Assembly: GCA_963763325.1 (NCBI GenBank)
Contig: CAVXOL010000022.1
Span: 16,737-80,736, forward strand
Length of the DNA stretch: 64,000 nt
Source: an uncultured Chloroflexia bacterium
Lineage (GTDB): Bacteria; Chloroflexota; Chloroflexia; Thermomicrobiales; CFX8
Direction of reading: 5' to 3'
Position 1 is the first letter of the stretch. Each line of letters starts with the position of its first letter. Position numbers and translations under genes: made by a program. Positions 3,425 to 24,906 of the stretch are shown here, one piece after another. Under the pieces are notes generated by a model. That model worked only from the letters and a program-made list of their open reading frames with translations. It did not search any database and was not told the origin of the DNA.

Positions 3425-3477
3425 GCGCGAAGATTGACACCTGTTGCGGAGGTCCATCGAACCCTACGGGAATCTAA

Positions 3478-6278
<2,801 letters not shown>

Positions 6279-6364: not shown

Positions 6365-8759
6365 TCAGTAGCCGTGTCGCGCCGCAGGGCGTCTGTCAAG
6401 GCCGTTGGAGCCGACACCATGGCGGCAGGCTTCGCGACCTGGGGGTGGCGAGACAGGTGGCCGGGCCGGCAGGGGTGGGTAGGAACACGTCTGCGGCGAA
6501 TCGAGCGCAATCGTGATCGGCTCGCCGTGGTGGAGCAGATCGAGCGGCTCGCCGGATAGCAGTTCGTAGCGAGCGTGGTCGCTGTTAACATCGACATGCA
6601 GGCGGCGGTCGCGATACATCAGTCGGAAGGACAGGCCGGTAAGCGTCTCAGGCAGGCGCGGAGAAAATGCCAGGGTCTCGCCATAGTCGCGCAGACCGCC
6701 GAACCCGGCGACCGCAACCAGCCAGGCACCTGCCAGCGAGGCGAGGTGGAGGCCGTCGGATGTGTTGCCGGCCAGATCGTGCAGATCGACGAAGGCGGTC
6801 TCACGGAAGTATCCGTAGGCCAGATCGAGATGCCCGACTTCGGCGGCAACGATGGCCTGGATCGCGGCTGAGAGCGTCGAGTCTCGAACGGTGATCGCCT
6901 CGTAGTACTCGAAGTCGCGTGCCTTCTGCTCCGGCGTCGAAGTGGTCGCCGCAGAGATAGAGGGCGAGGACGAGGTCGGCCTGCTTGATGACCTGGCTTG
7001 AATAAAGCAGGTAGTACGGATAGTTCAGCAGCAGCGGATATTCCTCGTCGCCGGTCGCGCTGAAGTCCCAGGGCCGATAGCGCGTGAACCCTTCCGACTG
7101 GGCCGTCACGCCAATCTCATGGTCGAACGGCACGACCATCGCGCTGGCCGCCTTCAGCCAACTCGTGACCTCACGCTGATCGACGTGGACCTCAGCGGCG
7201 CGATCCGGATAGCGAGTCACGACATCAGCGGCGACGCGCAGGTTCCGCGCCGCCATCAGATTGGTGAAGACGTTATTGTCAACCAGCGCGGTGTATTCGT
7301 CCGGTCCGGTGACGCCGTCGATACGAAAGCACCCTTCCGCATCGTGGTGACCGACCGCCAGCCAGAGACGTGCCGTTTCAACCAGCAGCTCAAGACCGGG
7401 ACCGCGCTCGAACTCGGTGTCGCCGGTTGCGGCGACGTAGCGGCGGACGGCGTCGGCGATGTCGGCGTTGATGTGGAGCGAGGCCGTGCCGGCCGGCCAG
7501 TAGCCCGAGCACTCGTCGCCGCGTATCGTCCGCCACGGAAAGGTTGCCCCGGCCAGGCGCAGTTCGCGCGCCCGTGCACGAGCCAGGTCGAGCGTCGAGT
7601 GTCGCCAGCAGAGCGCATCGCGGGCCGCTTTGGGAGCGGTGTAGGTCAACACCGGCAATGTGTAGGTTTCGGTGTCCCAGAACGAATGACCGTCGTAGCC
7701 GCGGCCGGTGAGCCCCTTGGCGGGAATCGCGCGTTGCTCCGCCCGTGCGCCTGCCTGAATGACCTGGAAGAGCGCGTATCGCACGGCTTGCTGGAGCTCA
7801 TCATCGCCGCCGACAACGACATCGGCACGGTCCCAGATGTCATCGAGGTACTCACGTTGCCCGGAGAGGAGCCCGTCCCATCCGACGCGTTTCGCTGCTG
7901 AAAGCGCAGCATCGACCTGATCGCGCAGGGCCGGCATCGAACGCTCGCTCGACCAGCCGTAGGCCAGCAGCTTGATGACCGTCAGCTTCTGACCCGGCGC
8001 CAGTTCGGTGCTGATCGTGACACGCGCCAGGTCCTGCTCACTCTCCGACTCGGTGACCGTCCCCGCCGGTCCGTCGATCAGGTGGTCGATTCCGGCAGCC
8101 ATCCGGAGCCCACTGCTGCGGGTGTGGTGGCCGAGTGCCGCGCTGAGCTCGTTGTGAGTGTGATACTCGCTCACCAGTGGAGCACGGAGCGCGGCGGCGG
8201 CGCGTGGATCACCCTCGTTCTCCGGTAGCGGTTCGTTGGTGACCAGCGACGACTGGAGAACGATTCGGGCGGGCTCGTCGACCGCCTCGACCTCGTAGTA
8301 GATGGCTGCCACCGCGCGCTGGACGAACGAGACCAGCCGCGTCGAGCGAATGCGGACCGCCTTCCCGGCCGGCGATACCCATTCCACCTCGCGCCGCAGG
8401 ACGCCATCGCGCAGGTCGAGCACGCGCTCGTGGCGCACGAGCGTCCCATAGCGCACGTCGAACGGTTCGTCGTCGACCAGCAGCCGCATGAGCTTGCCGT
8501 TGGTCACGTCGATCAGCGACTGCCCCTCTTCGGGGTAGCCGTAGCCGCCCTCCGCGTATGGCAGCGGTAGCGTTTCGAAGAACCCGTTCAGGTACGATCC
8601 GGGAGTGTCGTGTGGCTCGCCTTCGTCGAGGTTGCCACGCAGCCCGATGTGTCCATTGGAGAGCGCGAAGATCGACTCTGTCTCGGCCAGCAAATCAAGT
8701 CGCAGGTTGGGTTCGGTGACGGACCACGGCTCGACCTTGAACACGCCTGGATCGATCAT
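6365..8759 (-). pseudogene. Glycoside hydrolase family 65 disaccharide phosphorylase (kojibiose/trehalose/maltose phosphorylase type); single 1-nt frameshift near 6937
   Basis: The 652-aa ORF 6801..8759 has the GH65 architecture. After 'LYLCGDHF' the natural continuation 'TPEQKARDFEYYEAITVRDSTLSAAIQAI...' lies in another frame, which runs on into ORF 6365..6619 ('MYRDRRLHVDVNSDHARYEL'). The start overlaps the pgmB stop by 4 nt. Confidence 0.8.
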
Positions 8760-9523
8760 CGCTCCTCCAGCAGCTCGCTCAGATCGGTGACAACGATGTC
8801 GGCGCCGTTGCGCCGCAGCGCTTCCGCGTGTCCGACGCGGTCAACTCCGACAACCCAGCCGAATGAACCAGCACGCCCGGCCGCGACACCGGCGACGGCG
8901 TCTTCGAAGACCGCACAGCCTGCCGGCTCGACGCCAAGGCTGGCGGCGGCAGCCAGAAACGTGTCGGGCTCGGGTTTGCCCGGCAGACCCGCCTCGCTGG
9001 CGACGATGCCATCGATGCGGACTTCGAACAGATGCTCGATCCCGGCTGCGATCAGCACCTCGCGACAATTCCGGCTGGCCGAGACGACCGCCGTCCGCAT
9101 CCCGACCGCGCGGACAGCCTCGACGAACCGCACCGAGCCCTCGTAGACCTCGACGCCATTGCGCCGGATGATCTCGTGGACGAGGTTGTTCTTACGCGTC
9201 CCGAGGCCGTGGACGGTCTCTGCCGTCGGTGGATCGTCGAGCGAGCCTTCCGGCAGAACGACCCCACGCGATGCCAGGAACGACCGGACGCCATCCTGCC
9301 GGAGCTTACCGTCGACATAGAGGGTGTAATCGGTCGCGATCTCGAAGGGGACGAACGGCTCAACGGTTTCCGTTGAGCGTTCGAGCAGGTACGTGTCGAA
9401 CATCTCTTTCCAGGCGGCAGCATGAACCTTCGCCGTCTGGGTCAGGACACCGTCGAGGTCGAACAGGCAGGCGCTGATGCCATCAGGCAACACTGGAACG
9501 TACCGCGTGTTCGTCGCTGTCAC
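8756..9523 (-). CDS. pgmB: beta-phosphoglucomutase (HAD superfamily)
   Basis: HAD motif I 'CLFDLDGVLTQTAKVHAAAWKEMF', 255 aa. It sits immediately upstream of, and is translationally coupled to, the GH65 phosphorylase, which is the classic pairing. Confidence 0.85.
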   Translation of the reverse strand: MTATNTRYVPVLPDGISACLFDLDGVLTQTAKVHAAAWKEMFDTYLLERSTETVEPFVPFEIATDYTLYVDGKLRQDGVRSFLASRGVVLPEGSLDDPPTAETVHGLGTRKNNLVHEIIRRNGVEVYEGSVRFVEAVRAVGMRTAVVSASRNCREVLIAAGIEHLFEVRIDGIVASEAGLPGKPEPDTFLAAAASLGVEPAGCAVFEDAVAGVAAGRAGSFGWVVGVDRVGHAEALRRNGADIVVTDLSELLEER

Positions 9524-9626
9524 TGCCAGGAACCCGCTTCCGTCATCAGACCCCGTCCAGGTGGTGGATGGGTCTACTGACTTCGCATTCTAACAACCTT
9601 CCCGGCGATGAGGACGGGGATAGCGG

Positions 9627-10292
9627 CTATGCCTGCGATGGCACCATTCTGCGGCGGACCCAGCTCAGGCTGCGGCGCAGGTTGGCAATCAGCCGTGGCA
9701 GATCGACGCGGAAGAGCAGGAAGACGCCAGCGACGCTGGCGACCTGGGTCGCGATCAGGATCGGCCCGCCGACCGGCGAGGTGATCACCTCGCTTAGCGA
9801 CGATGCCGCCTGGCTGGTTGCGGTCAGTGCAACGCCATAGATGGCTGCGCGGGCAAATCCGTAGACAATCGCGCCCGGCGCCAGCGGGATGCGCGCCATC
9901 CCGGCCGCCATGAAGAGCAGCGACTTCGGGACCGGGCCAACCGCGAACAAGCCCAGTAGCGGGATGCTCAGCCGCTTCTCGTCCCTGATCCTCGTTATCG
10001 CTCGTTCGACATCGGCCTGTCGTCGCGCCGGAATCAGCCGCGTGCCAAACCTCCGGCTCGCGAGAGCGAGTAACACACGCCCAACCGTCGCCCCGAAAGC
10101 GCCGATGATGGTGGCTGGAAGAATCGCCACATCCTGCTGGACGTGGAAGTAGGCGAGCATCGCCCACGTCGGCGGCGCCAGGATCGGCGTGATGTTGAAG
10201 AGGATCGACAGGAGTCCGACGAGGAGCAGGTTCCAGACGTGATCGAGCATGTGCGGTTCGTGCCTCCATACTGTGTGGAAGCAGACGGCCAC
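9627..10292 (-). CDS. DedA/VTT (SNARE-associated) family membrane protein
   Basis: 221-aa multi-TM ORF with a DedA-like core ('ILAPPTWAMLAYF', 'GAFGATVGRVLLALASRRFG'). The true start may be the internal 'MLDHVWN' near 10250. Confidence 0.7.
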   Translation of the reverse strand: MAVCFHTVWRHEPHMLDHVWNLLLVGLLSILFNITPILAPPTWAMLAYFHVQQDVAILPATIIGAFGATVGRVLLALASRRFGTRLIPARRQADVERAITRIRDEKRLSIPLLGLFAVGPVPKSLLFMAAGMARIPLAPGAIVYGFARAAIYGVALTATSQAASSLSEVITSPVGGPILIATQVASVAGVFLLFRVDLPRLIANLRRSLSWVRRRMVPSQA

Positions 10293-10401
10293 GCTTCCCG
10301 TGGCCTTCTCTCATCACACGCTCTAATAGTAATCGCATTCTTGCGGTTCCGTTACACCGCATCTGTCCGACCGCTCAATCTGCGTCACCTGCTGACACAA
10401 C

Positions 10402-11721
10402 TCATGGCTGGACGCGTAGCCGCACCGAGAGGAAATCGAACAGGACCCGAATGACCGCCAGGAGAGGGACCGCAAAGACCGCGCCGCGCAAGCCGTCGAT
10501 CTCGCTGAGCGCGATGACTGTCAGCAGGACGAGGATTGGATGGACGCGAACAGCCTGCCCCTGGATGCGTGGCGTCAGCACATTGCTCTCCAACTGCTGG
10601 ATGACGATGTAGACCACGATTGTCAGGATCCCGATCGTCGGCGACTGGTAGAAGCCGAGCAGGACGGCGGGGATCGCGCCGAGATAGGCGCCCAGGTACG
10701 GGATGATCGCCGTCATGGCGACCCAGAGGCCAAGCAGCACCGGGTAGGGGATGCCCAGCGCCCAGACGGCGAGGCCGGAGAGGATACCCTGTAACAAGCA
10801 TGACATCGCAAGCCCGCCCAGATAGCGCGACAACGACGATCCAAAGTCCTCCCACAACACCTGCGCGTCGCGACGGTACTTCGCTGGAGCAGCGCGGATG
10901 AACGTCGCCTTCATCCGTCGTGCGTCGAGGAGGAGATAGACCGCGACGAACACGATCCCGAACACCTTGACGAGAATGTCGAAGATGCCGGTGACGGCTC
11001 CCAGGAGATCATCGAGGAAACCCTCGGCTACCTGACTGGCGCGCTCGATCGCGCCCGTCCGAAGATCGTCGATGACGGCGTCCGAATCGTCCGAGACCAT
11101 CCCTCGTTCCTGCAACGGTCTGAGAGTGTCGCGCAGGAGCCGATCCCCCTCGTCGGCCAGGTCCGGGATCGCTTCGATCAGGCTGCTGATCTGGTTGATG
11201 AGCACCGGGATCGCGACAAAGATCGCGACGGCGAGGATGATGAAGGTGCTCAGCAGTGTCAGGACAATTGCGACGCCACGCCGCATGAAGCGGGACAGCA
11301 GCCGAACCGGGAACGACAGGATCAGCGCCAGCAGCGCACCGCCGAGGCTGATCGTCAGGATGACCGGCGCTGCCCGGATCAGCAGAATCAGCCCGATGAC
11401 GGCAGCCAGAATCAGCAGGTTTCGAGTCCGGGGCGAGATTGGTATCGGAGTCGGCGCGCCCCGCAGGACCATCTCCGGAGTGACTGGGAATTGGCCTGCG
11501 TCGTCGCCATCGACAGTCCGCTTGTCGTTACTGTTGCTATTACCGTCGTACATCGCGTCGCCTTGTCCTGCCACCTGGCGAGTATCCGTATCGAGACGCT
11601 CATCGATGGCGCTGAGCGGTGGTCCAGTATAGATTTGATTCGCCGTGATGGAGATGGTGGTTTCGACGGATCGGGCCAACGACCGGGGGATGTGCTGAAG
11701 ACGAGACGAAGGTGACGACAT
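10402..11721 (-). CDS. AI-2E family transporter (PerM/UPF0118)
   Basis: C-terminal half is typical of the family: 'AIIPYLGAYLGAIPAVLLGF', 'VVYIVIQQLESNVLTPRIQGQAVRVHPILVLL'. The start is possibly the internal Met at about 11553, because 11721 overlaps the divergent neighbour. Confidence 0.85.
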   Translation of the reverse strand: MSSPSSRLQHIPRSLARSVETTISITANQIYTGPPLSAIDERLDTDTRQVAGQGDAMYDGNSNSNDKRTVDGDDAGQFPVTPEMVLRGAPTPIPISPRTRNLLILAAVIGLILLIRAAPVILTISLGGALLALILSFPVRLLSRFMRRGVAIVLTLLSTFIILAVAIFVAIPVLINQISSLIEAIPDLADEGDRLLRDTLRPLQERGMVSDDSDAVIDDLRTGAIERASQVAEGFLDDLLGAVTGIFDILVKVFGIVFVAVYLLLDARRMKATFIRAAPAKYRRDAQVLWEDFGSSLSRYLGGLAMSCLLQGILSGLAVWALGIPYPVLLGLWVAMTAIIPYLGAYLGAIPAVLLGFYQSPTIGILTIVVYIVIQQLESNVLTPRIQGQAVRVHPILVLLTVIALSEIDGLRGAVFAVPLLAVIRVLFDFLSVRLRVQP

Positions 11722-12317
11722 TCCTGCTGGTGCTCGATCTGGCCGGGACGTTCGTGTTCGCGATCAGCGGTGGGATGGCCGGTGTCCGGTACAAGCTCGA
11801 CCTCTTCGGCGTCCTCGTCGTGTCGATCGTGGCGGCAACGGCCGGCGGCATCCTTCGGGATGTGCTGATCGGCGCCGTCCCACCGGCCGCGATCAACGAC
11901 TGGCGCTACATCGTCGTGTCGTGTATCGCTGGGTTGATGGCGTTCCAGTGGCACGCGCTGATCGACAAGCTGCAGAATCCCGTCTCGGTGTTCGACGGCG
12001 CGGGGCTGGCGCTCTTCGCCGTCACCGGCACGTCAAAGGCCCTGGCCTATGACCTCGATCCGGTCGGCGCGATCCTGCTCGGCATCCTGTCGGGAACTGG
12101 AGGGGGCGCGTTACGCGACGTGCTGGTCGCACGGCCACCGACGGTGTTGCGCTCCGAGCTGTATGCCGTGACCGCGATGGCTGCCGCAATCGTCGTCGTT
12201 GGCGGCGATCTCCTGGACCTTCCACCCAGACCGGTCGCTCTGGCTGGAGCCGCGCTCTGCTTCGGGCTGCGCCTCGCGGCGATCCGGCGCGGATGGGGGC
12301 TGCCGTCTGCCAGGTAA
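11712..12317 (+). CDS. TRIC/UPF0126 (YadS/YicG-like) trimeric cation channel family membrane protein
   Basis: Two UPF0126 repeats: 'LDLAGTFVFAISGGMAG...GGILRDVLIG' and 'DGAGLALFAVTGTSKA...GGGALRDVLV'. Confidence 0.8.
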   Translation: MTTFLLVLDLAGTFVFAISGGMAGVRYKLDLFGVLVVSIVAATAGGILRDVLIGAVPPAAINDWRYIVVSCIAGLMAFQWHALIDKLQNPVSVFDGAGLALFAVTGTSKALAYDLDPVGAILLGILSGTGGGALRDVLVARPPTVLRSELYAVTAMAAAIVVVGGDLLDLPPRPVALAGAALCFGLRLAAIRRGWGLPSAR

Positions 12318-12451
12318 GAGACGGGGGACGGGGCACGGGGCACGAGGGTGAGGATGGCCCCTACACGGGGATCGTCCCGCGTCCTGCGACCCCTCATTCT
12401 CCATGCCTCATCCATGGGAGCTGTTGCAAACGAGGTTTCATTATGCTGTCG

Positions 12452-14209
12452 TCAGGCCGTCTCCGCTTCGTTTGGCGGCAGCCACGCTCTGAGCAGGAAG
12501 TACCCAATCCCACCGGCTGCAAGCGATCCAACCAGAATGCCGATCCGGGCAGAGTCCGCGAGCGGATCGTCACCGAAGGCCAGCTCTGAGATGAAGAGTG
12601 ACATTGTGAAGCCGATGCCGCCGAGCCAGGCGACGCCGAAGACGTGCTTCCACTCGACTGCTGTGTGCAGGACGGCGATCCCACTTCGAACGGCCAGCCA
12701 CGCGAACAGCGTAATGCCGATCGGCTTGCCAATCATCAGCCCGGCAATCACGCCCCAGGTGACGGTGCTGCCGATCGCATCACCAAAGCCATCGACGAGG
12801 GGGATGCCTGCATTTGCGAACGCAAAGAGCGGGACGACCCCGTAGGAGACGGATGGATGGAGCCGGTGGAGGAAGTGTGTCAGTGGTGCTTCCACCTGCT
12901 CCGTGAGGCGCGCCAGTGACTGGGTCGCTTGCTGCTGTTTCTCATTGGAGAGCATGTTCAGTGTCGAGTAGGACGCCTGCTCGAAGTCACCCATGATCCG
13001 GCGGCCACGGGCCAGAAACTCGCTTGGGTTGATCCATGCTCGGGTTGGCACGGTCATCGCAACCAGGACGCCCGCCAGCGTCCCGTGAATGCCCGACTCG
13101 AAGACGGCCAGCCAGAGGCCAACACCGAGGACGGCGTAGACCGGCCAGCGGTAGATTCCGGCGCGGTTGACGACGATCAGGACCAGGAGCAGAAGTCCTG
13201 CTGCTCCGACCGCGTCCCACGCGATCTCGTCGGTATAGAAGACGGCGATGACGCCGACGGCCAGGATGTCGTCGATGATCGCGAAGGCGGTCAGGAAGAC
13301 GAGCAGCTGTGGGCGAACGCGACCGCCAAACAGGCTGATGATCCCCAGCGAGAAGGCGGTGTCGGTCCCGATTGGGATGCCCCAGCCGTGCGCTCCCTCT
13401 CCTCCCAGCACGAGCAGCGAGAAGATCAGCGCCGGGCCGATCGCGCCGCCTACCGCTGCCGCGATCGGCAGGGCTGCCTGGCGCGGGTAGCGTAGCTCGC
13501 CAACCAGCACCTCGCGCTTGATCTCCAATCCGACGATGAAGAAGAAGAGCGCCATCAGCCCGTCATTGACCCAGTGCCGCAACGTCTCGGTGATCGCGAA
13601 GCGTTCGACACCGATCGTCAATTCCGTGTTCCAGAAGTTCGCATACGTGTCCGATAGCGGCGAGTTGGCAAACACGAGCGCCAGGCCGGTGCCGATCAGG
13701 AGCAGTCCGATACTTGAGACGTTGGATTGGACGTACTGATTGAGTGGTGTGCGGGCCAGTGCGAGTGGACTGGCCTGGGCGGTTCCGGTGATGTTGCTCA
13801 ACAGCGGCGGCGCCTCAGCGAACTCCTCACCGCGCTCGTACCAGAGTTGTCGTTCCTCCGACTCGGTCCAGCGTCTGAGATTGGCTTCGCTGTCGAATCT
13901 CAGCAGAATCCGATACCGATTGTCTCCACGCGAGGGGCGGAACAAACGAGCGCCGATGTAACCTGGAAATTTCGATGACGCTTCGTTGAACCCCCGCAGG
14001 TAGTCCTCGAAGTCCTGCTCGCGTCCCGGACGAACCGGGATGAAGATGCTGAGTGTGATCTCGGAATCGTCTGCACCGGTGCTGTCGAGTGATCGTCGTT
14101 CCTGCGTCGACTCCGCCGCACGTGCCGGCAGCAGTTCTTCGCCAGCGTCGCTAACCGAACGGACTGGCGGGCTGCCCAGCTCGTGCTCGTCGCCTCTACT
14201 CATTGCCAA
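12452..14209 (-). CDS. nhaA: Na+/H+ antiporter NhaA with N-terminal ABM/ferredoxin-like domain
   Basis: NhaA core: 'LALVFANSPL', 'HWVNDGLMALFFFIVGLEIKREVLVGEL', 'VPLFAFANAGIPL'. It is preceded by about 100 aa that are ABM-like: 'ITLSIFIPVRPGREQDFEDYLRGF...YRILLRFDSEANLRRWTESEER'. Confidence 0.85.
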   Translation of the reverse strand: MAMSRGDEHELGSPPVRSVSDAGEELLPARAAESTQERRSLDSTGADDSEITLSIFIPVRPGREQDFEDYLRGFNEASSKFPGYIGARLFRPSRGDNRYRILLRFDSEANLRRWTESEERQLWYERGEEFAEAPPLLSNITGTAQASPLALARTPLNQYVQSNVSSIGLLLIGTGLALVFANSPLSDTYANFWNTELTIGVERFAITETLRHWVNDGLMALFFFIVGLEIKREVLVGELRYPRQAALPIAAAVGGAIGPALIFSLLVLGGEGAHGWGIPIGTDTAFSLGIISLFGGRVRPQLLVFLTAFAIIDDILAVGVIAVFYTDEIAWDAVGAAGLLLLVLIVVNRAGIYRWPVYAVLGVGLWLAVFESGIHGTLAGVLVAMTVPTRAWINPSEFLARGRRIMGDFEQASYSTLNMLSNEKQQQATQSLARLTEQVEAPLTHFLHRLHPSVSYGVVPLFAFANAGIPLVDGFGDAIGSTVTWGVIAGLMIGKPIGITLFAWLAVRSGIAVLHTAVEWKHVFGVAWLGGIGFTMSLFISELAFGDDPLADSARIGILVGSLAAGGIGYFLLRAWLPPNEAETA

Positions 14210-14363: not shown

Positions 14364-15449
14364 TCAGCCCCGAATGGCTGCCAGCACCTTCGCGATGAAT
14401 TCGTCGAAGCGGTCGGCGTCGGTCCAGCGGACGACGGTTAGCATGTCGTGGTCTGGATCGACCCAGATGACATTGCGGCCGTAGCCGAGCGCGAAGAAGC
14501 TCGACTCCGGCGCGCTCGGGAAGAGTTGGCGGTCCGGGTTGAGCCACCACATGTAGCCGTAGGTCGGGTTGACGTCGCCCGGGGTTGTGGCCCGGTCGAT
14601 CCACGCTTCGGAGAGCAGTTGCCTGCCGCCCCAGTGGCCGCGCCGCAGGTAGAGCAGGCCGAAGCGGGCGTGGTCGCGGGTGCTGGCCCAGACGCCGCCA
14701 CCGTAGTGGCCGCCGCCGGCCACCGACTGGACCTTGAGGCCATCGAGCGTGATCCACGAGGTGTCGTAGCCGTGCCACTCCCAGGTGTGGCTGGCGCCGA
14801 TCGGGTCCATGATCTGCTCGCGGAGGACAACAGGCAGCGGGCGACGGAGCGCGCGCAGGACGGAGTAGGCGGCCAGATTGACGCGGACATCGTTGTACTC
14901 GTAGAAGGTTCCGGGTGTGTTCAGCGTCCGCTCGCGGCCCTGACGGCGGTCGGCCAGGTCGGGCTTCTGCCAGAGGGTGCCCTCCCACTCGCTGGTCTGT
15001 TGCAGCAGGTGATGCCAGGTGATCTGCTCGTTGTTGTCGCCGTCAAAGGTGCCGTCGGTAACGTAATCGCGGACCGGATCGTTGAAGTCGCGGATCAACC
15101 CGGCATCCCAGGCAACGCCGGCCATCGTCGCGACGTAGCTCTTGGCGACCGAGAAGGTCATGTCGACTCGCGCCGTGTCGCCCCACTCAGCAACGATGTA
15201 GCCGTTGCGGGTGATCATCCCATTCGTCGGTCCACGGTCGCGATAGGGGCCAACCGGCTCCTCCCAGGGGTCCTCGGCCACCCGCTGCTCGTAGAACTCA
15301 GCCAGCCGGTATGGCATCGACTGGTTCTCGCTGTCGGCGCTGAAAGCGGCTGCCTCGGCGATCCCGTCCACATCGAGGCCGACCTCGATCGGGTCGCGCC
15401 ACTGCCACTCCCAGCGTCCCGGTTCGTATGCTGTTGCCACGGTCCTCAC
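14364..15449 (-). CDS. Serine hydrolase, beta-lactamase/transpeptidase-like family
   Basis: 361-aa ORF with an SxxK motif 'FSVAKSYVATMAGVAW'. Length and pattern are typical of class C-like esterases/PBP-like hydrolases. Confidence 0.75.
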   Translation of the reverse strand: MRTVATAYEPGRWEWQWRDPIEVGLDVDGIAEAAAFSADSENQSMPYRLAEFYEQRVAEDPWEEPVGPYRDRGPTNGMITRNGYIVAEWGDTARVDMTFSVAKSYVATMAGVAWDAGLIRDFNDPVRDYVTDGTFDGDNNEQITWHHLLQQTSEWEGTLWQKPDLADRRQGRERTLNTPGTFYEYNDVRVNLAAYSVLRALRRPLPVVLREQIMDPIGASHTWEWHGYDTSWITLDGLKVQSVAGGGHYGGGVWASTRDHARFGLLYLRRGHWGGRQLLSEAWIDRATTPGDVNPTYGYMWWLNPDRQLFPSAPESSFFALGYGRNVIWVDPDHDMLTVVRWTDADRFDEFIAKVLAAIRG

Positions 15450-16581: not shown

Positions 16582-16669
16582 TCCCTGCCGTTCTCTGCTC
16601 TTCTTGACGACAACGCCACAGCGTGACAGACTAGCCCATGCGCTGGGCAACCGGCGTGACAACCCAGAA

Positions 16670-16875
16670 TCCGGCAGCGGGTACTCGTCTTTGGGCGAGG
16701 TCACAGGGGGAAACCGGTGCGAGACCGGTGCTGTGCCGCAACTGTAACGCGCGTCGTGCGCGGAGCCAGGTCACCTGCCGTTGCCGTTCCGGTTCGCTTC
16801 GAGCACGAGTGAGCTGGGATGGTCAGGAAACCGACCTCCCTCTCTCACCCGCTCGAAGGCGGGTTTTTGTTTTGT
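16670..16875 (+). promoter_or_regulatory. Cobalamin (B12) riboswitch with terminator-type expression platform
   Basis: Core matches the cobalamin riboswitch consensus: 'GGTCACAGGGGGAAACCGGTGCGAGACCGGTGCTGTGCCGCAACTGTAAC'. The B12 box is 'GGAGCCAGGTCACCTGCC'. It is followed by hairpin CCCGC-TCGAAG-GCGGG (16848-16863) plus 'TTTTTGTTTTGT'. Confidence 0.8.
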
Positions 16876-16923
16876 GCCGCCTCGCCCCGGACCAGGGCGC
16901 GGCCGGATCGAGAGGGGGACCCC

Positions 16924-18465
16924 GTGGTCTACCACCGTGGGCGCTCGTTGCCCGTTGCCCTGCTCCTCGTCGTGCTCCTGGCGTTCTCTGCTGGACCAGC
17001 CCTGATCCAACCCGCACAGGCTGCCGTTCCACAACCAGACGCGGCCGACGCTGCACTTGACTGGCTGCGGACCCAGCAGATGTCGGATGGTGGGTTCGCG
17101 GCCTTCAGCGAGGTCAGCGATGCCAGTGTCAGCGCCGATGCCGCGTACGCGTTCGCCGCGGCAGGGGTGCACCCGGACAATGTCGTGTCGGCATCTGATG
17201 CCAGCTTGCTGGGCTACCTGCGCTCGGTCGCTGGCCAGGAAGTGGCAAATCCGGGCCGGGCTGCCAAGCTTGTGCTGGCGTTGCACGTTGCCGGTGACGA
17301 CCCGCGTGATGTGGGCGGCACCGACCTCGTCAGCGCCATTGAGCTTGGCCTGAATGGCGAGACCGGCTGGTATGGCGATTCGTTCTTTGGCCACTTGCTG
17401 GCTCTACTCGCGCTTGCCTCACAGGATGCAGCAATTCCAGACGCGGCTATCGACGCGATCGTGACCGCCCAGACGCCGGAAGGCTCGTGGGGCTTTAACG
17501 GCGACCCAACGGCGGGAACCGGCGACTCGAACACGACGTCGATGGCGATTCAGGCGCTGGTCGCGATTGATGGCGATCCCGCTGCGATTGACGCGGGACT
17601 CGACTACCTGCGCTCATTGCAGAACGCCGAAGACGGCACGATCTCCTACGACTCGCTCTCGGTCGGCGATCCGGGCGGCGACGCCAACTCGACGGCGCTG
17701 GCGATCCAGGCGTTCGTTGCAGCCGGTGAGGACCCGGCGACGCTGGAGCACGGCGACCTGCTGACGGCGTTGCTGACCTTCCAGAACGAGAGCGGCGCGT
17801 TCCAGTTCCAGCCGGCTTTCCCTGACGACTCGCTGCTGGCGACGGCGCAGGCTGTTCCGGCGCTCCTCCTAAAAGCGTTCCCGTATGACCAGCTGCCGGT
17901 GAGAAACCCACTTAGCGACGCAATGGCGCCGGCCGCACCAATCGACGGCTGCATGTACCACGAGATTACGCAACATAACGTCTGTGCGCCGTTCGCGACG
18001 TATTGGGAGGCGAATGGTGGGCTGGCGAACTTCGGCTATCCGCTGACGGAGGAGGTTGAGTACAACGGCCAGGTCGTCCAGTACTTCGAGCGCGCGATCT
18101 TTGAGTTGCATCCCGAGAACGCCGGGACGCCGTACGAGGTGCTGCTGACGCGCGTTGGCTGGGACGCCTACCTGCTGGCCCACAGCGGCGGAATGACTGC
18201 TGCCGACCCGATTGGAGGCGGGTGTCACTACTTCAATGAAACGACTCACAACCTCTGCGGTGGTTTCGCGGCTTTCTGGGAGAACTTCGGTGGGCTGGCT
18301 GTCTTCGGCTACCCGATCAGTGAGGAGATCCAGGAAGATGGGATGACGGTCCAGTACTTCGAGCGAGCGCGCTTCGAGTGGCATTCCGGCGCATGGCCGG
18401 AGCGCTACGACGTGCTACTCGGGCGGCTGGCGGCGGATGCGCTCGACCGTGAACTCAACCAATAG
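16924..18465 (+). CDS. Secreted alpha/alpha-toroid (prenyltransferase/terpene-cyclase-like repeat) protein with two C-terminal ~75-aa repeats
   Basis: SD 'gagaggggga' precedes in-frame GTG 16924. Signal peptide 'RSLPVALLLVVLLAFSAGPALIQPAQA'. Repeated Q-x2-DGG-type motifs: 'QQMSDGGFA', 'QTPEEGSWG'-like 'QTPEGSWG', 'QNAEDGTISY', 'QNESGAFQF'. The ORF-track start 16819 lies inside the riboswitch terminator and is rejected. Confidence 0.75.
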   Translation: MVYHRGRSLPVALLLVVLLAFSAGPALIQPAQAAVPQPDAADAALDWLRTQQMSDGGFAAFSEVSDASVSADAAYAFAAAGVHPDNVVSASDASLLGYLRSVAGQEVANPGRAAKLVLALHVAGDDPRDVGGTDLVSAIELGLNGETGWYGDSFFGHLLALLALASQDAAIPDAAIDAIVTAQTPEGSWGFNGDPTAGTGDSNTTSMAIQALVAIDGDPAAIDAGLDYLRSLQNAEDGTISYDSLSVGDPGGDANSTALAIQAFVAAGEDPATLEHGDLLTALLTFQNESGAFQFQPAFPDDSLLATAQAVPALLLKAFPYDQLPVRNPLSDAMAPAAPIDGCMYHEITQHNVCAPFATYWEANGGLANFGYPLTEEVEYNGQVVQYFERAIFELHPENAGTPYEVLLTRVGWDAYLLAHSGGMTAADPIGGGCHYFNETTHNLCGGFAAFWENFGGLAVFGYPISEEIQEDGMTVQYFERARFEWHSGAWPERYDVLLGRLAADALDRELNQ

Positions 18466-18466
18466 A

Positions 18467-19438
18467 ATGCCAGGAGCGCGGCGGTTCATCGTCGCGCTCC
18501 TCATTCTCTCGGCGATCGCGCTGGCCGGCATCCTGCCGGTGGCGGCCCAGCGTCCGAATGGGGCCGGGCTTGTCGTTCGTTTCGGCGACGGGTCGCTGAT
18601 CTACGCCTACGTCCAGTTCGAGGAAGAGACGATCACCAGCGAAGAACTGCTCTACCGCTCAGGGCTGGCGGTGGCGATCGCGCCGTACAGTGGTCTTGGG
18701 GCAGGCGTCTGTATGATCAACGGCGAGGGTTGCCCGTCCGACGACTGCTTCTGCCAGTCGTACACGACACCGGCCTACTTCTGGCACTTCTACGCTCACG
18801 ATAGCGGCTGGCGCGAACTGCTCCAGGGCGCGTCGAGCCGCAGTGTCGGTGACGGCGACATCGACGGCTGGTCGTGGACGGCTGGCGAGTCCGGCTTGCC
18901 CGCCGTCACGATCGACGAGATCGCGCTGATGAACGGTGTCGATCGCAACCCCCCCGAAATCCCTCCGACTGAGACGCCGACGCCGGAGCCGACCAGCACC
19001 CCGACGATCAGCCCAACCAACACGCCACTCCCCACGCCGACGCAGCCACCACCCACCAGCACGCCGGAGCGCATCTCGACAGCAATTGCCGAGCCGTCCG
19101 TGACCGTCACTCAATCCGCGTCAACGACATCCGGAACAACGCCGACATCTGGGATTGGGCAGGTTGCTGCGACCACATCGTCAACGCGCGAGTCGAGCCC
19201 AACCGCGACCGTCGCACGGACATCAACGCCGATTGCACCATCTCCGACGCTGACGCTGATTGCCAGCGCGACAACGGTCGCCGTCCTCGTCCAGCCTGAT
19301 GGGACGACGGTTCCGGTCGAGGTTGTTCAGGCAGACGACGGCACGTCATCGACGAACCTGATGCTCTTTAGCGGGCTTGTGGTCGTCGCGGCCGGGGCGG
19401 GTGCGTTTGTCTGGGTACGGGGGAGGCGGGCGGCGTGA
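18467..19438 (+). CDS. DUF4430 (transcobalamin-like C-terminal domain) protein with Pro/Thr-rich linker and C-terminal TM anchor
   Basis: ATG 18467 lies 1 nt after the upstream stop. Signal peptide 'FIVALLILSAIALAGILPVAAQ'. DUF4430-like pattern 'YFWHFYAHDSGWRELLQGASSRSVGDGDIDGWSW'. PT-rich 'PPTETPTPEPTSTPTISPTNTPLPTPTQPPPTSTP'. TM 'LMLFSGLVVVAAGAGAFVWV'. Confidence 0.7.
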   Translation: MPGARRFIVALLILSAIALAGILPVAAQRPNGAGLVVRFGDGSLIYAYVQFEEETITSEELLYRSGLAVAIAPYSGLGAGVCMINGEGCPSDDCFCQSYTTPAYFWHFYAHDSGWRELLQGASSRSVGDGDIDGWSWTAGESGLPAVTIDEIALMNGVDRNPPEIPPTETPTPEPTSTPTISPTNTPLPTPTQPPPTSTPERISTAIAEPSVTVTQSASTTSGTTPTSGIGQVAATTSSTRESSPTATVARTSTPIAPSPTLTLIASATTVAVLVQPDGTTVPVEVVQADDGTSSTNLMLFSGLVVVAAGAGAFVWVRGRRAA

Positions 19439-20439
19439 TCAACCCTCTCGCCTGGCTGCTCTGGTTCGTCGGCGTCACCAGCGTGCCAGTCGTCAGCCGG
19501 AATCCGTTCTACCTGGTGCTTGATTTGCTGGTCGTGCTGGTCGTCTACCTCTCGCTGCCGCGCGCGAGCGGGGCAGCCCGCGCCTGGCGGCTCTTCGCGC
19601 TGGTTGGATCGACTCTGGCGCTGTTGTCGGTCGGGTTCAACGTTCTGACCGTCCATGTTGGTGACAAGGTCTTCGCGACCCTGCCGGATTCGTTGCCGAT
19701 CGTTGGCGGAAACCTGACGTGGAATGCGTTCGTTTACGGGATGCTTTCTGCGCTGGCGATCGCGACGTTGCTGATCGCGGCGGCGACGTTCAATACGGCT
19801 GTCCGGCAGGGCGATATCATCCGACTCGTGCCGGGTAGCTTCGCGGGGCTGGGGATCGCCGGCAGCATCGCGATGACGATGGTGCCGCAGACGATCGCGG
19901 CTGGACGCGACATCTACGATGCGCAGCGCTCGCGCGGACATCGGTTTCGGGGGTTGCGCGATGCGCGGAGCCTGATCGTCCCGCTACTGGGGAGCGGGCT
20001 GGAGCGGGCGGTGACACTCTCGGAGGCGCTGGAGGCGCGGGGTTTCGGGGCCAGTGTTGCGGTTGCCGAGCCCTCCGGCACCCGACGGTTGCCGCTTCTG
20101 GCCGCCGTCTGCCTGCTGACGTTGTCGCTGCTGGCGATTGCGAGCGGTCGGTTGGCAGTCGGGCTGGCACTGATGGCGGGAGCAGTCGCCTGTGTCCTAC
20201 GGGCGACTCCATCTCGTAACCGGCGCACGCGCTTTCGACCGCTCGACTGGAACATGGCCTCGCTGACGGTGGCAGGGGCTGGCGTCGCGGTCGCGCTCGT
20301 CTTCGTGGGTCTGCTGACGCTGACCGGCACGACCATCTCGTATGATCCGTTCCCGCGCCTCACAATGCCCCCGTTCGAGCCGTTGGCGGGCGCGACGATA
20401 CTGTTGCTGCTGGCGCCGATCTTCTGGACCCAGCCATGA
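19435..20439 (+). CDS. ecfT: ECF transporter transmembrane (T) component, CbiQ/EcfT family, with extra C-terminal TM segments
   Basis: GTGA overlap with the upstream gene. Multi-TM, with the conserved coupling helices 'DIYDAQRSRGHRF' and 'RAVTLSEALEARGFG'. Confidence 0.8.
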   Translation: MINPLAWLLWFVGVTSVPVVSRNPFYLVLDLLVVLVVYLSLPRASGAARAWRLFALVGSTLALLSVGFNVLTVHVGDKVFATLPDSLPIVGGNLTWNAFVYGMLSALAIATLLIAAATFNTAVRQGDIIRLVPGSFAGLGIAGSIAMTMVPQTIAAGRDIYDAQRSRGHRFRGLRDARSLIVPLLGSGLERAVTLSEALEARGFGASVAVAEPSGTRRLPLLAAVCLLTLSLLAIASGRLAVGLALMAGAVACVLRATPSRNRRTRFRPLDWNMASLTVAGAGVAVALVFVGLLTLTGTTISYDPFPRLTMPPFEPLAGATILLLLAPIFWTQP

Positions 20440-22106
20440 CCGCCGTCGTCGCCGATCGGTTGTCGTATCGCTTCCCGAAGGCGACGGTTGATGCGCTGCG
20501 CGAGGTGTCGTGGGCCGTCGAGGACGGATCGGTGACGCTCGTGACCGGACCGTCGGGTTCCGGCAAGACGACGCTGTTGCGCTGCCTGAACGGGCTGATC
20601 CCGCACTTTCACGGGGGGATGTTCGGCGGCGATGTCTCGGTCCTCGGCGTCAACACGCGCGCGGCCGGGCCGCGTGATCTGGCGCGTGAGGTCGGGATGG
20701 TCTTCCAGGACCCGGAGGCGCAGTTCGTCACCGACCGGGTTGAGGACGAAATCGTCTTCGGGATGGAGAACCTCGGCTACGACCGCCGGACGATGCGAGT
20801 CCGGCTCGAAGAGACGCTCGATCTGCTCGGCATCAACCATCTGCGGCAGCGTGAGGTCGCAACCCTCTCCGGCGGTGAGCGGCAGCGGGTGGCGATCGCT
20901 GCCGCATTGGCGACCCGCCCTGCTGTGCTTGTCCTCGACGAACCGACCTCGCAGCTCGACCCGCTGGCGGCCCACGATGTTCTGGCCGCCGCACAGCGTC
21001 TCAACAGCGACCTGGGGATGACGATCGTTATCAGCGAGCACCGGCTCGACCGCGTCCTGCCCTTCGCCGACCGGCTGGTCGCGATTGACTCGGGTTCGTT
21101 CTATGAGGGTCCCGTTCAGGATGTCCTGTCACTGATGGACGATGTGCCGCCGCTGGTTGAGCTGGCGCGGGTTCTTGGCTGGGAGCCGGTTCCATTGACG
21201 GTGCGGGAGGCACGGCGCAAACCCCTCCCCAACCGCCACCCAGAGGGTACCCGGCCTGCGAAGGGAGGGGCTTTAGATTCCGTGCGGCGAAAAGCCCCTC
21301 CCTTCGCAGGCCGGGTACCCTCTGGGTGGCGGTTGGGGAGGGGCTTCTCGAACGCGCCCGGAAACGCCCTCCTCACCTTTGACGCCGTCACCTTCCGCTA
21401 CGACCGCACCACCGCGCTACGCGACATCACGCTCACCGGTCATGCCGGCGAAGTCATCGCATTGATCGGCCGCAACGGCTCCGGAAAGACGACGTTGCTC
21501 AAGCATGTCAACGGTTTGCTGCGCCCGAGTGGCGGGCGAGTGTTGCATGAGGGAATCAATATCGCACGGACGCCCGTCCACGAGGCGGCGCGGACTGCCG
21601 GGTACGTGCCGCAGCATCCGACCTCGATTCTCCATCAGGAGACGGTGCGCGATGAGTTGCGCTTCACGCTCCGGGCGCAAGGGAAAGAGATCACGCCGGG
21701 GCCGTTGCTGGAGCAACTCGGCCTGCTGCATCGGATAGACCGGCACCCGCTGGACCTGAGTGGCGGCGAGCGCCAGAGGTTGGCCCTGGCAGCGATCGCG
21801 ATTGGTGAACCGCATATCCTGCTGCTCGACGAGCCGACACGCGGTCTGCCCGGTAATGATAAGCGGACGCTGGCCACGTTCGTGCGCGAGTACGCTGCTA
21901 AGGGCCGGCTCGTCGTCGTCGCCACCCACGATGTTGAGTTCGTCGCCAACGCTGCCGACCGCGTCATCATGCTCGCCGAGGGGGAGATCGTTGCCGACGG
22001 GACTCCCGCCGAGGTCCTGGCCGGCTCGCTTACCTTCGGTACCCAGATGAACCGGCTGTTTGGTGGCGACGTGCTGACGGTCGAGGATGCGATAGTGAGG
22101 AGATAG
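20436..22106 (+). CDS. ecfA: Fused duplicated ECF/CbiO-type ABC ATPase (EcfA1-EcfA2)
   Basis: Two ABC cassettes. First: Walker A 'GPSGSGKTTLL', signature 'LSGGERQRVAIA', 'VLVLDEPTSQLD'. Second: 'GRNGSGKTTLL', 'LSGGERQRLALA', 'ILLLDEPTRGL'. ATGA overlap with ecfT. The inter-domain linker contains the palindromic insert. Confidence 0.9.
   Translation: MTAVVADRLSYRFPKATVDALREVSWAVEDGSVTLVTGPSGSGKTTLLRCLNGLIPHFHGGMFGGDVSVLGVNTRAAGPRDLAREVGMVFQDPEAQFVTDRVEDEIVFGMENLGYDRRTMRVRLEETLDLLGINHLRQREVATLSGGERQRVAIAAALATRPAVLVLDEPTSQLDPLAAHDVLAAAQRLNSDLGMTIVISEHRLDRVLPFADRLVAIDSGSFYEGPVQDVLSLMDDVPPLVELARVLGWEPVPLTVREARRKPLPNRHPEGTRPAKGGALDSVRRKAPPFAGRVPSGWRLGRGFSNAPGNALLTFDAVTFRYDRTTALRDITLTGHAGEVIALIGRNGSGKTTLLKHVNGLLRPSGGRVLHEGINIARTPVHEAARTAGYVPQHPTSILHQETVRDELRFTLRAQGKEITPGPLLEQLGLLHRIDRHPLDLSGGERQRLALAAIAIGEPHILLLDEPTRGLPGNDKRTLATFVREYAAKGRLVVVATHDVEFVANAADRVIMLAEGEIVADGTPAEVLAGSLTFGTQMNRLFGGDVLTVEDAIVRR
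21222..21343. repeat. Perfect 50-bp inverted repeat (22-nt spacer) of the C4TC4/G4AG4 nested-palindrome family, read in frame inside ecfA
   Basis: Checked base by base. Left arm 21222-21271 is 'cccctccccaaccgccacccagagggtacccggcctgcgaagggaggggc' and equals the reverse complement of right arm 21294-21343. It encodes 'KPLPNRHPEGTRPAKGGALDSVRRKAPPFAGRVPSGWRLGRG'. Confidence 0.9.
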
Positions 22107-22183
22107 TGCTGAGTGCTAAGGCGAGAGGAGTGGTTGACGCGATCGGTCACTAACTCCTTTCGCCTTAGCACTCAGCATTTTTC
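22107..22183 (+). terminator. Intrinsic terminator of the B12/ECF operon (25-bp stem, T-run)
   Basis: Stem 22107-22131 'tgctgagtgctaaggcgagaggagt' pairs with 22153-22177 with one G-U pair. It is followed by 'tttttc' and starts 1 nt after the ecfA stop. Confidence 0.75.
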
Positions 22184-22341: not shown

Positions 22342-24906
22342 ATGCCCCGACGCTCCAAGACGGCACCTGAGAACAGTGACGCGCTAACCGATGCCGAGGA
22401 CCTGGGCGATGCCTATGTCGCCGCGCCGGAGCGGGTCAAGCCGGACGACGAATCGACCTACCTGACGCTGCCGACGCTGATCCTGCCGCAGACGTTGTTG
22501 CTGCCGCGGATGTCGCTGCCCTACCCGCTCGATGACGAGGAAGAGACCCAGGCAGTTGATGACGCCATTAAGCACGATCGGCTGATCCTTGTTCTGGCCG
22601 CCAGGGACCAGGACGAAGATGACGATGACCTCGATGACGACGAGGAGGATGAGGACGCCGACAGCGTTTCTCTCGATGAGTCGCGTGCCGGTGTCGTGAC
22701 GAGCTACGGGTCACTGGTCGCCGATGACGAGCTCTGCACGGTTGGCGTGATCGCTGAGGTTGGCCACAAGATTACACGGCCCGGTGGGCCGGCCCATGTC
22801 ATCCTCCAGGGTGTCGCCCGTGGTGTTGTCAAGGAGATCGAGCAGCGCCGGCCGTTCACGCTGGCGAAGGTCAAGCGGATCGATGACGCGAACGTTGAGA
22901 CGCTTGAGGCGAAGGCGGTCATGTCGCACGTCCTTGAGCAGGTCGAGTCGTACATCGCGATGCTGCCGAACGTGCCGGAAGAAGTCGTCACGATGGTGCG
23001 CAGCGTCGATGAGCCGGGCTGGCTGGCCGACCTGATCGCCTTCTCGCCCGAGTTCGAGTCGGCCAAGAGGCAGGAGGCCCTGGAGAGCTCGATCCGGTCG
23101 AGCGGTTGCGCCACATCTCCGTCATCCTCCAGGAGCGGCTGGAGTATCTGACGCTGCGGCACCAGATCCAGTCGGAGGCACAAGCCGGGCTGGACCGCCA
23201 GCAGCGTGAATACCTGCTGCGTGAGCAGATGCGCACGATCCAGCGCGAGCTGGGCGATGTGGCCGCGCGAAGAGGCGCTCGTCCAGGAGTTCCGCGACAA
23301 AATCGAAGCGGCCGGGATGCCGGATGAGGTCAAGACCAAGGCGCTCCTCCAGGTCTCACCGGCTGGAGCACCAGCACCCGTTCTCCCCGGAGATCGGCGT
23401 GATCCGTTCCTACCTGGAATGGCTGACCGAGCTGCCGTGGTCGATCGAGACTGAGGATAAGCTCGATCTCGAGGAGGCTGCGAGGATCCTTGATGAGGAC
23501 CACTACGGTCTGCCGAGAAGGTCAAGGAGCGTATCCTCGAGTTCATCGCTGTCCGCAAGCTTGCCGGCAATCGGATGAAGGCGCCGATCATCTGCTTCGT
23601 CGGCCCGCCCGGCGTCGGCAAGACCAGCCTGGGCCGCTCGATTGCCCGTGCGCTGGGCCGCTCCTACGTGCGAATGTCGCTCGGTGGTGTCCGCGACGAA
23701 GCCGAGATGCGTGGCCATCGGCGCACCTACGTCGGCGCGATGCCGGGCCGCGTCATCAAGGCGCTGCGAGACGCGAAGACGCAGAACCCGGTCATGGTGC
23801 TGGACGAAGTCGACAAGGTCGGCTCGGATGCGTTCCGTGGCGACCCATCATCGGCGCTGCTGGAAGTGCTCGACCCCGAGCAGAACCATTCGTTCTCTGA
23901 CCACTACCTGGAGGTTCCGTTCGACCTGTCACAGGTGATCTTCATCACGACCGCTAACCTGCTCGACCCGATCCCGGCGCCGCTGCGAGACCGGATGGAG
24001 ATCATCGAGGTTTCCGGCTACACCGAGGTCGAGAAGCTGGAGATCGCCCGCAAGTTCCTGTTGCCGAAGGCGCTCTACTCGCACGGCCTGGAAGAATCGC
24101 AACTGATCATGCCGGACGAGGCGCTGCTGCGGCTGATCCGTGAGTACACGCACGAGTCGGGCGTGCGCAATCTCGATCGAGAGGTTGGCGCGCTCTGCCG
24201 CAAGGTGGCGCGACGGGTGGCCGAGGACGCCGGAGCGCGAGAGCTGGCTGGTCGATGCGCGAGGATCTGCCGTCGTTCCTGGGTATCCCGCGCTTCGAGT
24301 TCGGGCTGGCCGAGGAGAACGACGAAATCGGCGTCGCGACTGGCGCCGCCGTCACGAGTGCTGGGGGCGACCTGCTCTCGGTCGAAGACGACGGTGATGG
24401 CCGGGAAGTCGGAACTGACGCTGACGGGCCAGCTCGGTGATGTCATGCAGGAGTCGGCGCGGGCCGCGATCTCCTACGCGCGCTCACGCTCGCAGGAGCT
24501 TGGCATCCCGGTCGGCTTCTTTGACAGCCACACGATCCACATCCATGTTCCGGCCGGTGCGATCCCGAAGGATGGCCCCTCGGCCGGCGTGACGCTGGCG
24601 ACCTCGCTCATCTCGGCCGTGACCGGCAACAAGGTCCGCAAGGATGTCGCGATGACGGGCGAGGTGACATTGCGTGGCAAGGTGCTACCGATCGGAGGCA
24701 CCCGCGAGAAGGCGCTGGCTGCCCACCGCGGCGGGATCACGACCTTCATCATCCCGAAGCGCAACGAGAAGGACCTCGACGACCTGCCCGCCACCGTCCG
24801 CGATGAGCTCGATATCCACCTCGTCTCGCACATGGACGAGGTGCTGGCGATCGCGTTCGTGGCTGCTCCACGCGCCGTCAAGGAGCTGGCCGCCGTCGGC
24901 GACTGA
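22342..24906 (+). pseudogene. lon: ATP-dependent Lon protease, multiply frameshifted as assembled
   Basis: N-domain 'LPTLILPQTLLLPRMSLPYPL'. Coiled region '[39 protein letters not shown]'. '[19 protein letters not shown]'. Walker A 'FVGPPGVGKTSLGRSIA'. 'HRRTYVGAMPGRVI'. Protease 'LTGQLGDVMQESARAA' and 'PKDGPSAGVTLATSLISA'. At least 6 frame changes, including a compensating pair at about 24240 and 24395. Confidence 0.9.

Follow-up and report, generated by a model that had tools for sequence, protein, structure and literature searches.

What does an energy-coupling factor (ECF) motor import, and with which substrate-binding protein, when its genes lie behind a cobalamin riboswitch together with two genes for extracytoplasmic proteins and no gene for an S component? 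The question is posed by a four-gene operon in a 64,000-nt stretch of DNA from an uncultured Chloroflexia bacterium of the Thermomicrobiales (contig CAVXOL010000022.1, positions 16,737 to 80,736). This whole stretch is hereafter called the window, and the coordinates of the operon are given in its numbering. The genes, designated g1 to g4, encode a secreted toroid, a membrane-tethered beta protein, an ECF T component and a fused double ATPase (A-A'). Our analyses make it likely that corrinoids are what the operon acquires, by means of an ECF transporter. With somewhat less assurance, we also regard as probable the complete chain of events, in which a B12-repressed operon for corrinoid scavenging and import belongs to the CbrT-type ECF family and receives its S component in trans. 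The features of the operon, where TM stands for transmembrane, are as follows:

16662..16795, + strand: aptamer of a cobalamin riboswitch (Rfam RF00174; 53.5 bits against a gathering score of 31.5, E = 1.7e-10)
16847..16874, + strand: intrinsic terminator of the riboswitch, a hairpin ACCCGC-TCGA-AGGCGGGT followed by TTTTTGTTTTG
16924..18465, + strand: g1, a 513-aa secreted transcobalamin-alpha-like alpha/alpha toroid with two LGFP-like C-terminal repeats
18437..19438, + strand: g2, a transcobalamin-beta-like protein of the SCO2322 family, membrane-tethered
18548-18970, + strand: beta domain of g2 (residues 38-178)
18971-19336, + strand: Thr/Pro-rich stalk of g2, 122 residues rich in Thr, Pro and Ser
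~19361-19435, + strand: C-terminal TM anchor of g2, a TM helix and a basic tail
19435..20439, + strand: g3, an ECF T component (EcfT), matching Pfam CbiQ over residues 3-205 (25.9 bits, cutoff 25)
20053-20436, + strand: C-terminal extension of g3 (residues ~207-334), with ~90 extra aa and ~3 TM helices
20436..22106, + strand: g4, a fused double ECF ATPase (A-A') with two Pfam ABC_tran domains
22107..22182, + strand: operon terminator, a long inverted repeat (22107-22177) and then TTTTT, directly after the g4 stop codon

The alignment of the aptamer to the Rfam model is full-length (model positions 1-189), with a B12-box-like GAGCCAGGTCACCTGCC visible, and it is the sole Rfam match within the window. 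The terminator, located fifty bases 3' of the aptamer and 5' of the start of g1, comprises a G+C-rich stem of 7 bp (ACCCGC/GCGGGT) that closes a loop of 4 nt, and is followed by a run of U. In the minimum free energy fold of the leader, the 5' side of the aptamer is an alternative pairing partner of the terminator region, an arrangement expected of a transcriptional off-switch. The original prediction of a cobalamin riboswitch with a terminator platform is therefore well supported. The coding sequence of g1 starts at GTG 16924, behind the ribosome-binding site GAGAGGGGGA, and its product is identical to database entry P0124; an ATG at 16819 was discarded as the start because it is 5' of the terminator and the mechanical open reading frame (ORF) from there spans this structure. 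The four genes are co-directional on the + strand, between the leader terminator and a strong 3' terminator that folds as a hairpin of ~71 nt with a perfect stem and a T-run. Genes g1 and g2 overlap by 29 nt, or, with a g2 start at 18467, are separated by 1 nt, and 4-nt overlaps join g2 to g3 (GTGA) and g3 to g4 (ATGA); the translational coupling, coordinates and anatomy attributed to the operon were thus found to be correct. No genes for B12 biosynthesis or btuFCD were found near the operon.

A scan of one genome per species retrieved 225 relatives of g2, of which the best 80 were examined. These 80 are from Chloroflexota (Thermomicrobiales, Sphaerobacter, Nitrolancea, Anaerolineae), except for one metagenome-assembled genome labelled Gemmatimonadales, and the order toroid, beta protein, T, AA' is maintained in virtually all of the ~80 Chloroflexota species loci. 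We also built our own covariance model of the leader, from four leaders only, three of them above the Rfam gathering score and the fourth a sub-threshold match to the adenosylcobalamin family AdoCbl (RF01482). This model found a full-length leader just upstream of the toroid gene in 73 of 84 sources, equivalent to 71 of 72 distinct loci; among the eleven sources without a match, ten are truncated at that region and the other, L065, has no toroid gene. Rfam, at its gathering threshold, confirms nine of the ten weakest leader matches as well as the first loci examined, so that the linkage of the g1-g2 pair to the riboswitch in other genomes is nearly invariant. The four-gene set is also found in Streptomyces sp. 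SAT1 (NZ_CP016083.1 494312-501792), in a five-gene cluster that includes an S gene, has a cobalamin riboswitch and adjoins a riboswitch-controlled metE. The same set of components occurs in Lactobacillaceae, as in plasmid pMF1298-5 from Lactiplantibacillus plantarum, with a cluster organized as T-AA'-S-(350-aa protein)-DUF4430, on which no riboswitch was detected.

The toroid and beta proteins

The product of g1 comprises a Sec-type signal peptide (residues 1-33), a toroid (~38-335) and the LGFP-like repeats (~340-513). For g1 and g2 we used AlphaFold (AF2) single-protein models, which were searched against the PDB with Foldseek. The model of g1, with a predicted local distance difference test score (pLDDT) of 94.8, is an alpha6/alpha6 toroid. 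Together with the signal peptide and with the Pfam matches to SQHop_cyclase_C (E = 3.6e-6) and Prenyltrans (E = 7.8e-6), both of them marginal, at or below cutoffs, this model agrees with the earlier description of the first gene product as a secreted alpha/alpha toroid. Class II terpene cyclases were the top Foldseek matches (2e-7) and transcobalamin appeared from rank 5 (5.9e-6), all of them with a probability of 1.0; likewise, a sequence-profile search returned only cyclases, with squalene-hopene cyclases as the best matches (E = 7.7e-18). The Pfam model of the eukaryotic cobalamin-binding protein (PF01122, Cobalamin_bind) did not match g1 at E ≤0.01, and it does match P0230, a homolog 58% identical to g1 (27.1 bits, cutoff 25). 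Additionally, the DxDD motif is not present in g1 and occurs in just three of 72 g1 homologs. The lack of this motif, the secretion of the protein and the Cobalamin_bind match of P0230 lead us to prefer a role of g1 as a carrier over one as an enzyme.

With the NCBIfam equivalog model SCO2321_fam (NF053823), g1 scored 98.7 bits (E = 3.2e-28), far under the cutoff of 300, which indicates that it is related to this family but is not an equivalog. The two C-terminal repeats of g1 are 53% identical to each other and contain a Cys pair each. They are also 53% identical to the C-terminal region of the homolog P0206, which matches Pfam LGFP (PF08310) at 8.8e-10, while g1 itself gave no match to this model. 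From these sequence similarities, the repeats could constitute a module for retention at the cell wall.

The product of g2 starts with a signal peptide and contains a conserved domain of 130 aa with four conserved Cys; its TM anchor is universal among homologs, whether or not an S gene is present, and therefore does not stand in for S. Using its AF2 model (pLDDT 94.0), Foldseek ranks 1 to 19 in the PDB were occupied only by the beta domains of transcobalamin, haptocorrin and intrinsic factor and by the DUF4430 structure 3U7Z (E from 1.5e-5 to 3e-3, probability 1.0, target-normalised template modelling score up to 0.81). This protein had been proposed as a membrane-anchored member of DUF4430: the anchor is upheld and the membership is not, because Pfam DUF4430 (PF14478) has no match on g2 even at E ≤10. 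An hhalign comparison of the g2 family profile with a bona fide DUF4430 protein was also non-significant (E = 0.36), and the likeness of g2 to DUF4430 is at the level of the fold only. Judged by its sequence, g2 probably belongs to the SCO2322 family, and not to Pfam DUF4430: hhalign gave a probability of 98% (E = 1.3e-13) for its alignment to the Streptomyces protein that occupies the SCO2322 position, and precomputed matches to Pfam PF28005 (SCO2322) exist for many g2 homologs, weak where their strength is given, and not for g2 itself. In searches for a sequence link between g2 and solved structures, phmmer and a profile search matched only the low-complexity linker. The family of the g2 domain comprises 1,784 representatives at 50% identity (E ≤1e-3), and no homolog of this domain was found in the plasmid database.

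The near-invariant pairing of their genes and the existence of proteins combining both domains argue that g1 and g2 work together. In P0366 (54% identical to g1 and 60% to g2) a signal peptide, toroid, short linker, beta domain and C-terminal anchor are contained in one polypeptide, and P0372 shows the same layout; both lack an internal signal peptide, indicating that they are genuine fusions and not read-through artefacts. Likewise, P0387 is a beta-beta-toroid protein. The folds of g1 and g2, the Cobalamin_bind match of P0230 and these natural fusions are all in agreement with the proposal that the operon encodes two separate extracytoplasmic halves of a transcobalamin-like clamp.

Two loci depart from the usual organization of the pair. 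In locus L080 (Anaerolineales, 7419-13000), a single S-T-AA' set is preceded by two pairs of toroid and beta genes and by two cobalamin riboswitches, one at 7425-7589 and the other at 9876-10066. Locus L065 (Anaerolineae, 253-4534) contains the beta protein gene and T-AA', with no toroid gene and no riboswitch, and has a gene for an ABC-2 permease upstream.

The ECF motor and its S component

The match of g3 to CbiQ is above the cutoff, and the coupling motifs SRG and ARG are found at residues ~165-203. The EcfT chains from the PDB align to residues 129-206 of g3, reaching position 230 of 266, i.e., up to the second coupling helix. Past this helix the tail of g3 has ~128 residues, versus ~36 in a canonical T component, so that g3 is ~90 aa longer than the solved EcfTs and was properly described as an enlarged EcfT/CbiQ-type T component. 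As for g4, it exceeds the cutoffs of both NCBIfam ECF ATPase models, ECF_ATPase_2 (TIGR04521; 333 bits, cutoff 330) and ECF_ATPase_1 (TIGR04520; 330.3 bits, cutoff 315), in a single protein, as corresponds to a fused double ATPase. In nine loci (L049, L052, L056, L059, L061, L079, L065, L082 and L038), the genes for T and for the double ATPase are apparently a single ORF of ~870-970 aa.

Our searches for an S component were confined to the operon, the 64 kb window and 9 kb around the related loci. For the operon and the window, tblastn, a hidden Markov model (HMM) of the S family at E ≤1 and Pfam scans of ORFs with multiple TM helices detected no S gene, and returned only VTT, Gly_transporter, EamA, AI-2E and Na/H exchangers. 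We also discarded an S component hidden in, or fused to, the T gene, because the extension of g3 (~90 aa, ~3 TM helices) matches neither Pfam nor the S-family HMM and is present where an S gene adjoins. A TauE/SafE gene divergent from S-lacking operons was rejected as a cryptic S component, because it belongs to the TauE/SafE family and is not present in the window. This gene is found on the opposite strand, just upstream of the riboswitch, in loci L006, L007, L014, L044, L045, L046, L048, L064 and L066.

An S gene does accompany the operon in a number of relatives. In eleven loci (L028, L049, L052, L056, L059, L061, L062, L069, L079, L080 and L083) it is a fifth co-directional gene, located directly after AA' or before T, and the deduced products form one family of 263-324 aa with 7 TM helices, three of which pass the threshold of Pfam ECF_trnsprt. 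The sole significant PDB match of the family profile is CbrT (6FNP_A, E = 5.9e-7), over nearly the whole chain. Metagenomes yielded at least 564 relatives of this family; among the best 80, which were inspected, ~60 adjoin cluster genes, on contigs that are often short, in the orders toroid-beta-S-T-AA' or toroid-beta-T-AA'-S, and of these ~60 loci 24 showed a riboswitch. Approximately six longer contigs contain an S gene with no cluster gene within ~7 kb and no riboswitch in those checked, and some of these S genes adjoin a PucR-type regulator. The orphan CbrT-like S genes of L146, L150 and L161 are on high-G+C contigs with neither ECF module nor riboswitch; beside each of them is a divergent gene whose product has a conserved N-terminus, and which encodes a PucR-type regulator in L146, the only one that was scanned.

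In a quick and rough neighbour-joining tree of the ATPases, loci containing S were scattered over three or more branches, the deepest among them, whereas the clade of the window was S-less throughout. This scatter fits an ancestral operon that contained an S gene, later removed from it. Moreover, an adjacent CbrT-like S gene occurs in relatives from Chloroflexota, Streptomyces and Lactobacillaceae, so that its absence here is a lineage-specific feature of the operon. The claim that there is no S component is therefore correct for the operon and the 64 kb window, but not for the system in general, and most likely, as the simplest solution, the S component is encoded elsewhere in the source genome.

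The best surviving alternative is an importer independent of S, in which the T-AA' module, with its extended T, would take the corrinoid directly from the surface clamp and the genome would contain no S gene. In its favour, neither the operon nor its flanks contain S in ~60 species-level loci whose genes and riboswitch are otherwise intact, T has ~3 extra TM helices, and the orphan S genes in metagenomes are few and without riboswitches. Nevertheless, we consider it unlikely. The extension of T is equally present beside an encoded S component, in loci with and without S, which indicates that it did not evolve to replace S and invalidates the idea that it compensates for the missing component; additionally, no resemblance to S families was found in it. 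Every ECF transporter characterised so far depends on an S component, in ECF systems the S gene commonly lies apart from the module, and the absence of S is known from operon, flanks and window, not from a whole genome. It is thus doubtful that the Thermomicrobiales clade, with at least 50 species, uses an ECF motor without S to which the clamp delivers the corrinoid directly through the extended T. If true, this would be the first ECF importer using extracytoplasmic binding proteins in place of S, and the S-lacking operons of the Thermomicrobiales are a natural test case of whether S acts in trans or is dispensable.

Substrate and relation to known systems

The operation of the system with an S component in trans can be envisaged as follows. 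When adenosylcobalamin is plentiful, the aptamer would be bound, the terminator at 16847-16874 would form and transcription would stop; when B12 is scarce, the four coupled genes would be expressed. The product of g1 would then be exported and held at the cell wall by its two LGFP-like repeats, and that of g2 would be exported and tethered to the membrane by its C-terminal helix, on the long Thr/Pro stalk. The g1 toroid and the g2 beta domain would jointly clamp the corrinoid, in the way that transcobalamin uses its alpha and beta domains; the similarity of folds, the fixed pairing and the fusions suggest this arrangement. The pair would pass the corrinoid to a CbrT-like S component, presumably supplied from another locus of the source genome and docked on T-AA', and ATP hydrolysis would drive import.

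Several observations weigh against this scheme. We know of no member of the g1 or g2 families with binding or transport data. By both sequence and fold, g1 is as close to terpene cyclases as to transcobalamin, and g2 is outside the Pfam domain of DUF4430. The S gene is missing not only from the operon and the window but also within 9 kb of the operon in ~60 related species. Lastly, the sole experimental study of a homologous operon, that of L. sakei, argued for heme and not for B12 (bioRxiv 10.1101/864751).

That operon, lsa1836-1840, encodes S, AA' and T components, the transcobalamin-beta-like protein Lsa1839 and the transcobalamin-alpha-like protein Lsa1840 (bioRxiv 10.1101/864751). It resembles the operon of the window, as does the cluster of pMF1298-5 from L. 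plantarum, in having a dedicated ECF module and separately secreted proteins similar to the alpha and beta halves of transcobalamin; conversely, these clusters include the S component, their beta protein is a true Pfam DUF4430 protein and their gene order is different. The concept of a split transcobalamin alpha/beta pair working with an ECF transporter is therefore not new, having been published for L. sakei, and the present system is better described as part of a widespread, poorly characterised one than as uncharacterised. The authors of that study assigned the operon to heme, reporting phenotypes related to heme as well as docking results for the homologous pair of alpha and beta proteins (bioRxiv 10.1101/864751), and heme or another tetrapyrrole could by extension be the substrate here. 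We find this improbable, because a cobalamin riboswitch precedes the operon in the window, nearly all the distinct related loci and the Streptomyces cluster, because the associated S family is closest to CbrT and because the Streptomyces neighbour is a metE under riboswitch control. The linkage to a B12 riboswitch leads us, conversely, to question the heme assignment of the L. sakei system.

Still less probable is that g3 and g4 form a cobalt or nickel module of the CbiQO type, with CbiM/N encoded elsewhere and with surface proteins unrelated to transport. This possibility would account for the match of T to Pfam CbiQ and for the fact that g4 also matches cobalt ATPase models, and B12 riboswitches often control cbiMNQO genes. 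Nevertheless, Pfam recognizes T components in general through its CbiQ model, the adjacent S genes in relatives are of the CbrT/ECF_trnsprt type and not CbiM, and g1 and g2 are always co-transcribed and are even fused to each other. The least credible explanation is that the operon is not a capture system and that g1, outside the cytoplasm, works on envelope lipids as a terpene cyclase or prenyltransferase. It draws on the best sequence and fold matches of g1; against it are the lack of DxDD in g1 and its rarity in the family, the marginal Pfam cyclase scores, the secretion of a single toroid with a Sec signal peptide and putative wall-binding repeats, the riboswitch control, and the pairing and fusion with a transcobalamin-beta-like protein.

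Corrinoid import is thus the preferred reading, and one of the closest known systems is ECF-CbrT from Lactobacillus delbrueckii, a proven importer of cobalamin and cobinamide (PDB 6FNP; Santos et al., 2018, PMC5997447). Both systems have T and A components of the ECF type, and a CbrT homolog adjoins relatives of the operon of the window. However, the ECF module of ECF-CbrT is a shared one, of group II, and the descriptions of that system include no surface proteins for capture, whereas the operon analysed here has a dedicated T-AA' module under riboswitch control, with A and A' fused and a T component ~90 aa longer, two surface proteins and no S gene. The same gene order is found in the SCO2321-SCO2322-type cluster of Streptomyces, with a toroid, an SCO2322-like protein, T and AA' preceded by a cobalamin riboswitch; it differs in having an S gene at its end and a toroid protein of 911 aa. 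We found no functional literature on the SCO2321, SCO2322 and DUF4430 families, and nothing relevant in searches of the literature for SCO2321-2324, CbrS or the combination of riboswitch, prenyltransferase and ECF.

The eukaryotic carriers transcobalamin, intrinsic factor and haptocorrin consist of an alpha6/alpha6 toroid and a small beta domain with the same folds as g1 and g2, and the alpha-then-beta order of transcobalamin is shared by the bacterial fusions P0366 and P0372. Conversely, the halves encoded in the window are two polypeptides, each exported by a signal peptide of its own and anchored differently, sequence identity is 10-18%, and ligand binding is predicted by analogy. It may be that eukaryotic transcobalamin and intrinsic factor descend from separately encoded alpha and beta proteins of prokaryotes such as these.

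Functional analogues exist in Bacteroides, where BtuG and BtuH are riboswitch-linked surface lipoproteins that capture corrinoids for a transporter; however, their folds are unrelated to those of g1 and g2, and they feed the TonB-dependent BtuB of a diderm cell. Uptake of B12 in monoderms is poorly understood outside of the BtuFCD paradigm and, to our knowledge, ECF transporters are defined by the absence of soluble binding proteins. What is particular to the operons described here is the clade-wide absence of S from the operon, the beta protein of the SCO2322 type, the putative LGFP-like wall anchor and the riboswitch evidence, which favours a corrinoid over heme. Through this operon family it can be tested whether bacteria scavenge corrinoids with a split transcobalamin-like clamp, whether such a clamp was the evolutionary source of the B12 carriers of animals, and how cargo is handed over from the clamp to an S component.

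Neighbouring genes and palindromic insertions

The genes upstream of the operon, both on the - strand, encode a large membrane protein with 8 TM helices (12452-14209) and a protein with a beta-lactamase fold (14364-15449), and are unrelated to B12. Directly downstream is a gene for Lon protease (22342-24906), which is split into at least four reading frames between ~23100 and 23600, the N domain being encoded by one ORF and the AAA and protease domains by a different one. The orthologous Lon gene in the same position of locus L003 is a single gene of 855 aa. The broken gene of the window is either a pseudogene or the result of assembly indel errors.

One further feature interrupts g4 itself:

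21219..21346, no strand assigned: palindrome within g4, 128 bp, in frame, in the linker between the ATPase domains

This palindrome has 56-nt arms, 98% complementary, and a 16-nt spacer, and it is a lineage-specific insertion of ~36 aa compared with homologs. Being near-perfect and in frame, it would yield a near-identical peptide (KPLPNRHPEGTRPAKGGA...) from both strands. It was discarded as a repeated mobile element, because neither the window nor 1.7 Mb of related loci contained a further copy. Likewise, the S proteins of one clade (L049, L052, L056, L059 and L061) have a variable insertion of 30-50 aa in the same loop; in L049 (10496-10529) the insertion contains a perfect palindrome with 15-nt arms, and that of L061 shares the peptides PEGTRP and LSTQHF with translations of the g4 insert and of the operon terminator palindromes. 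These insertions may reflect small palindromic elements that enter loops without disturbing the reading frame.

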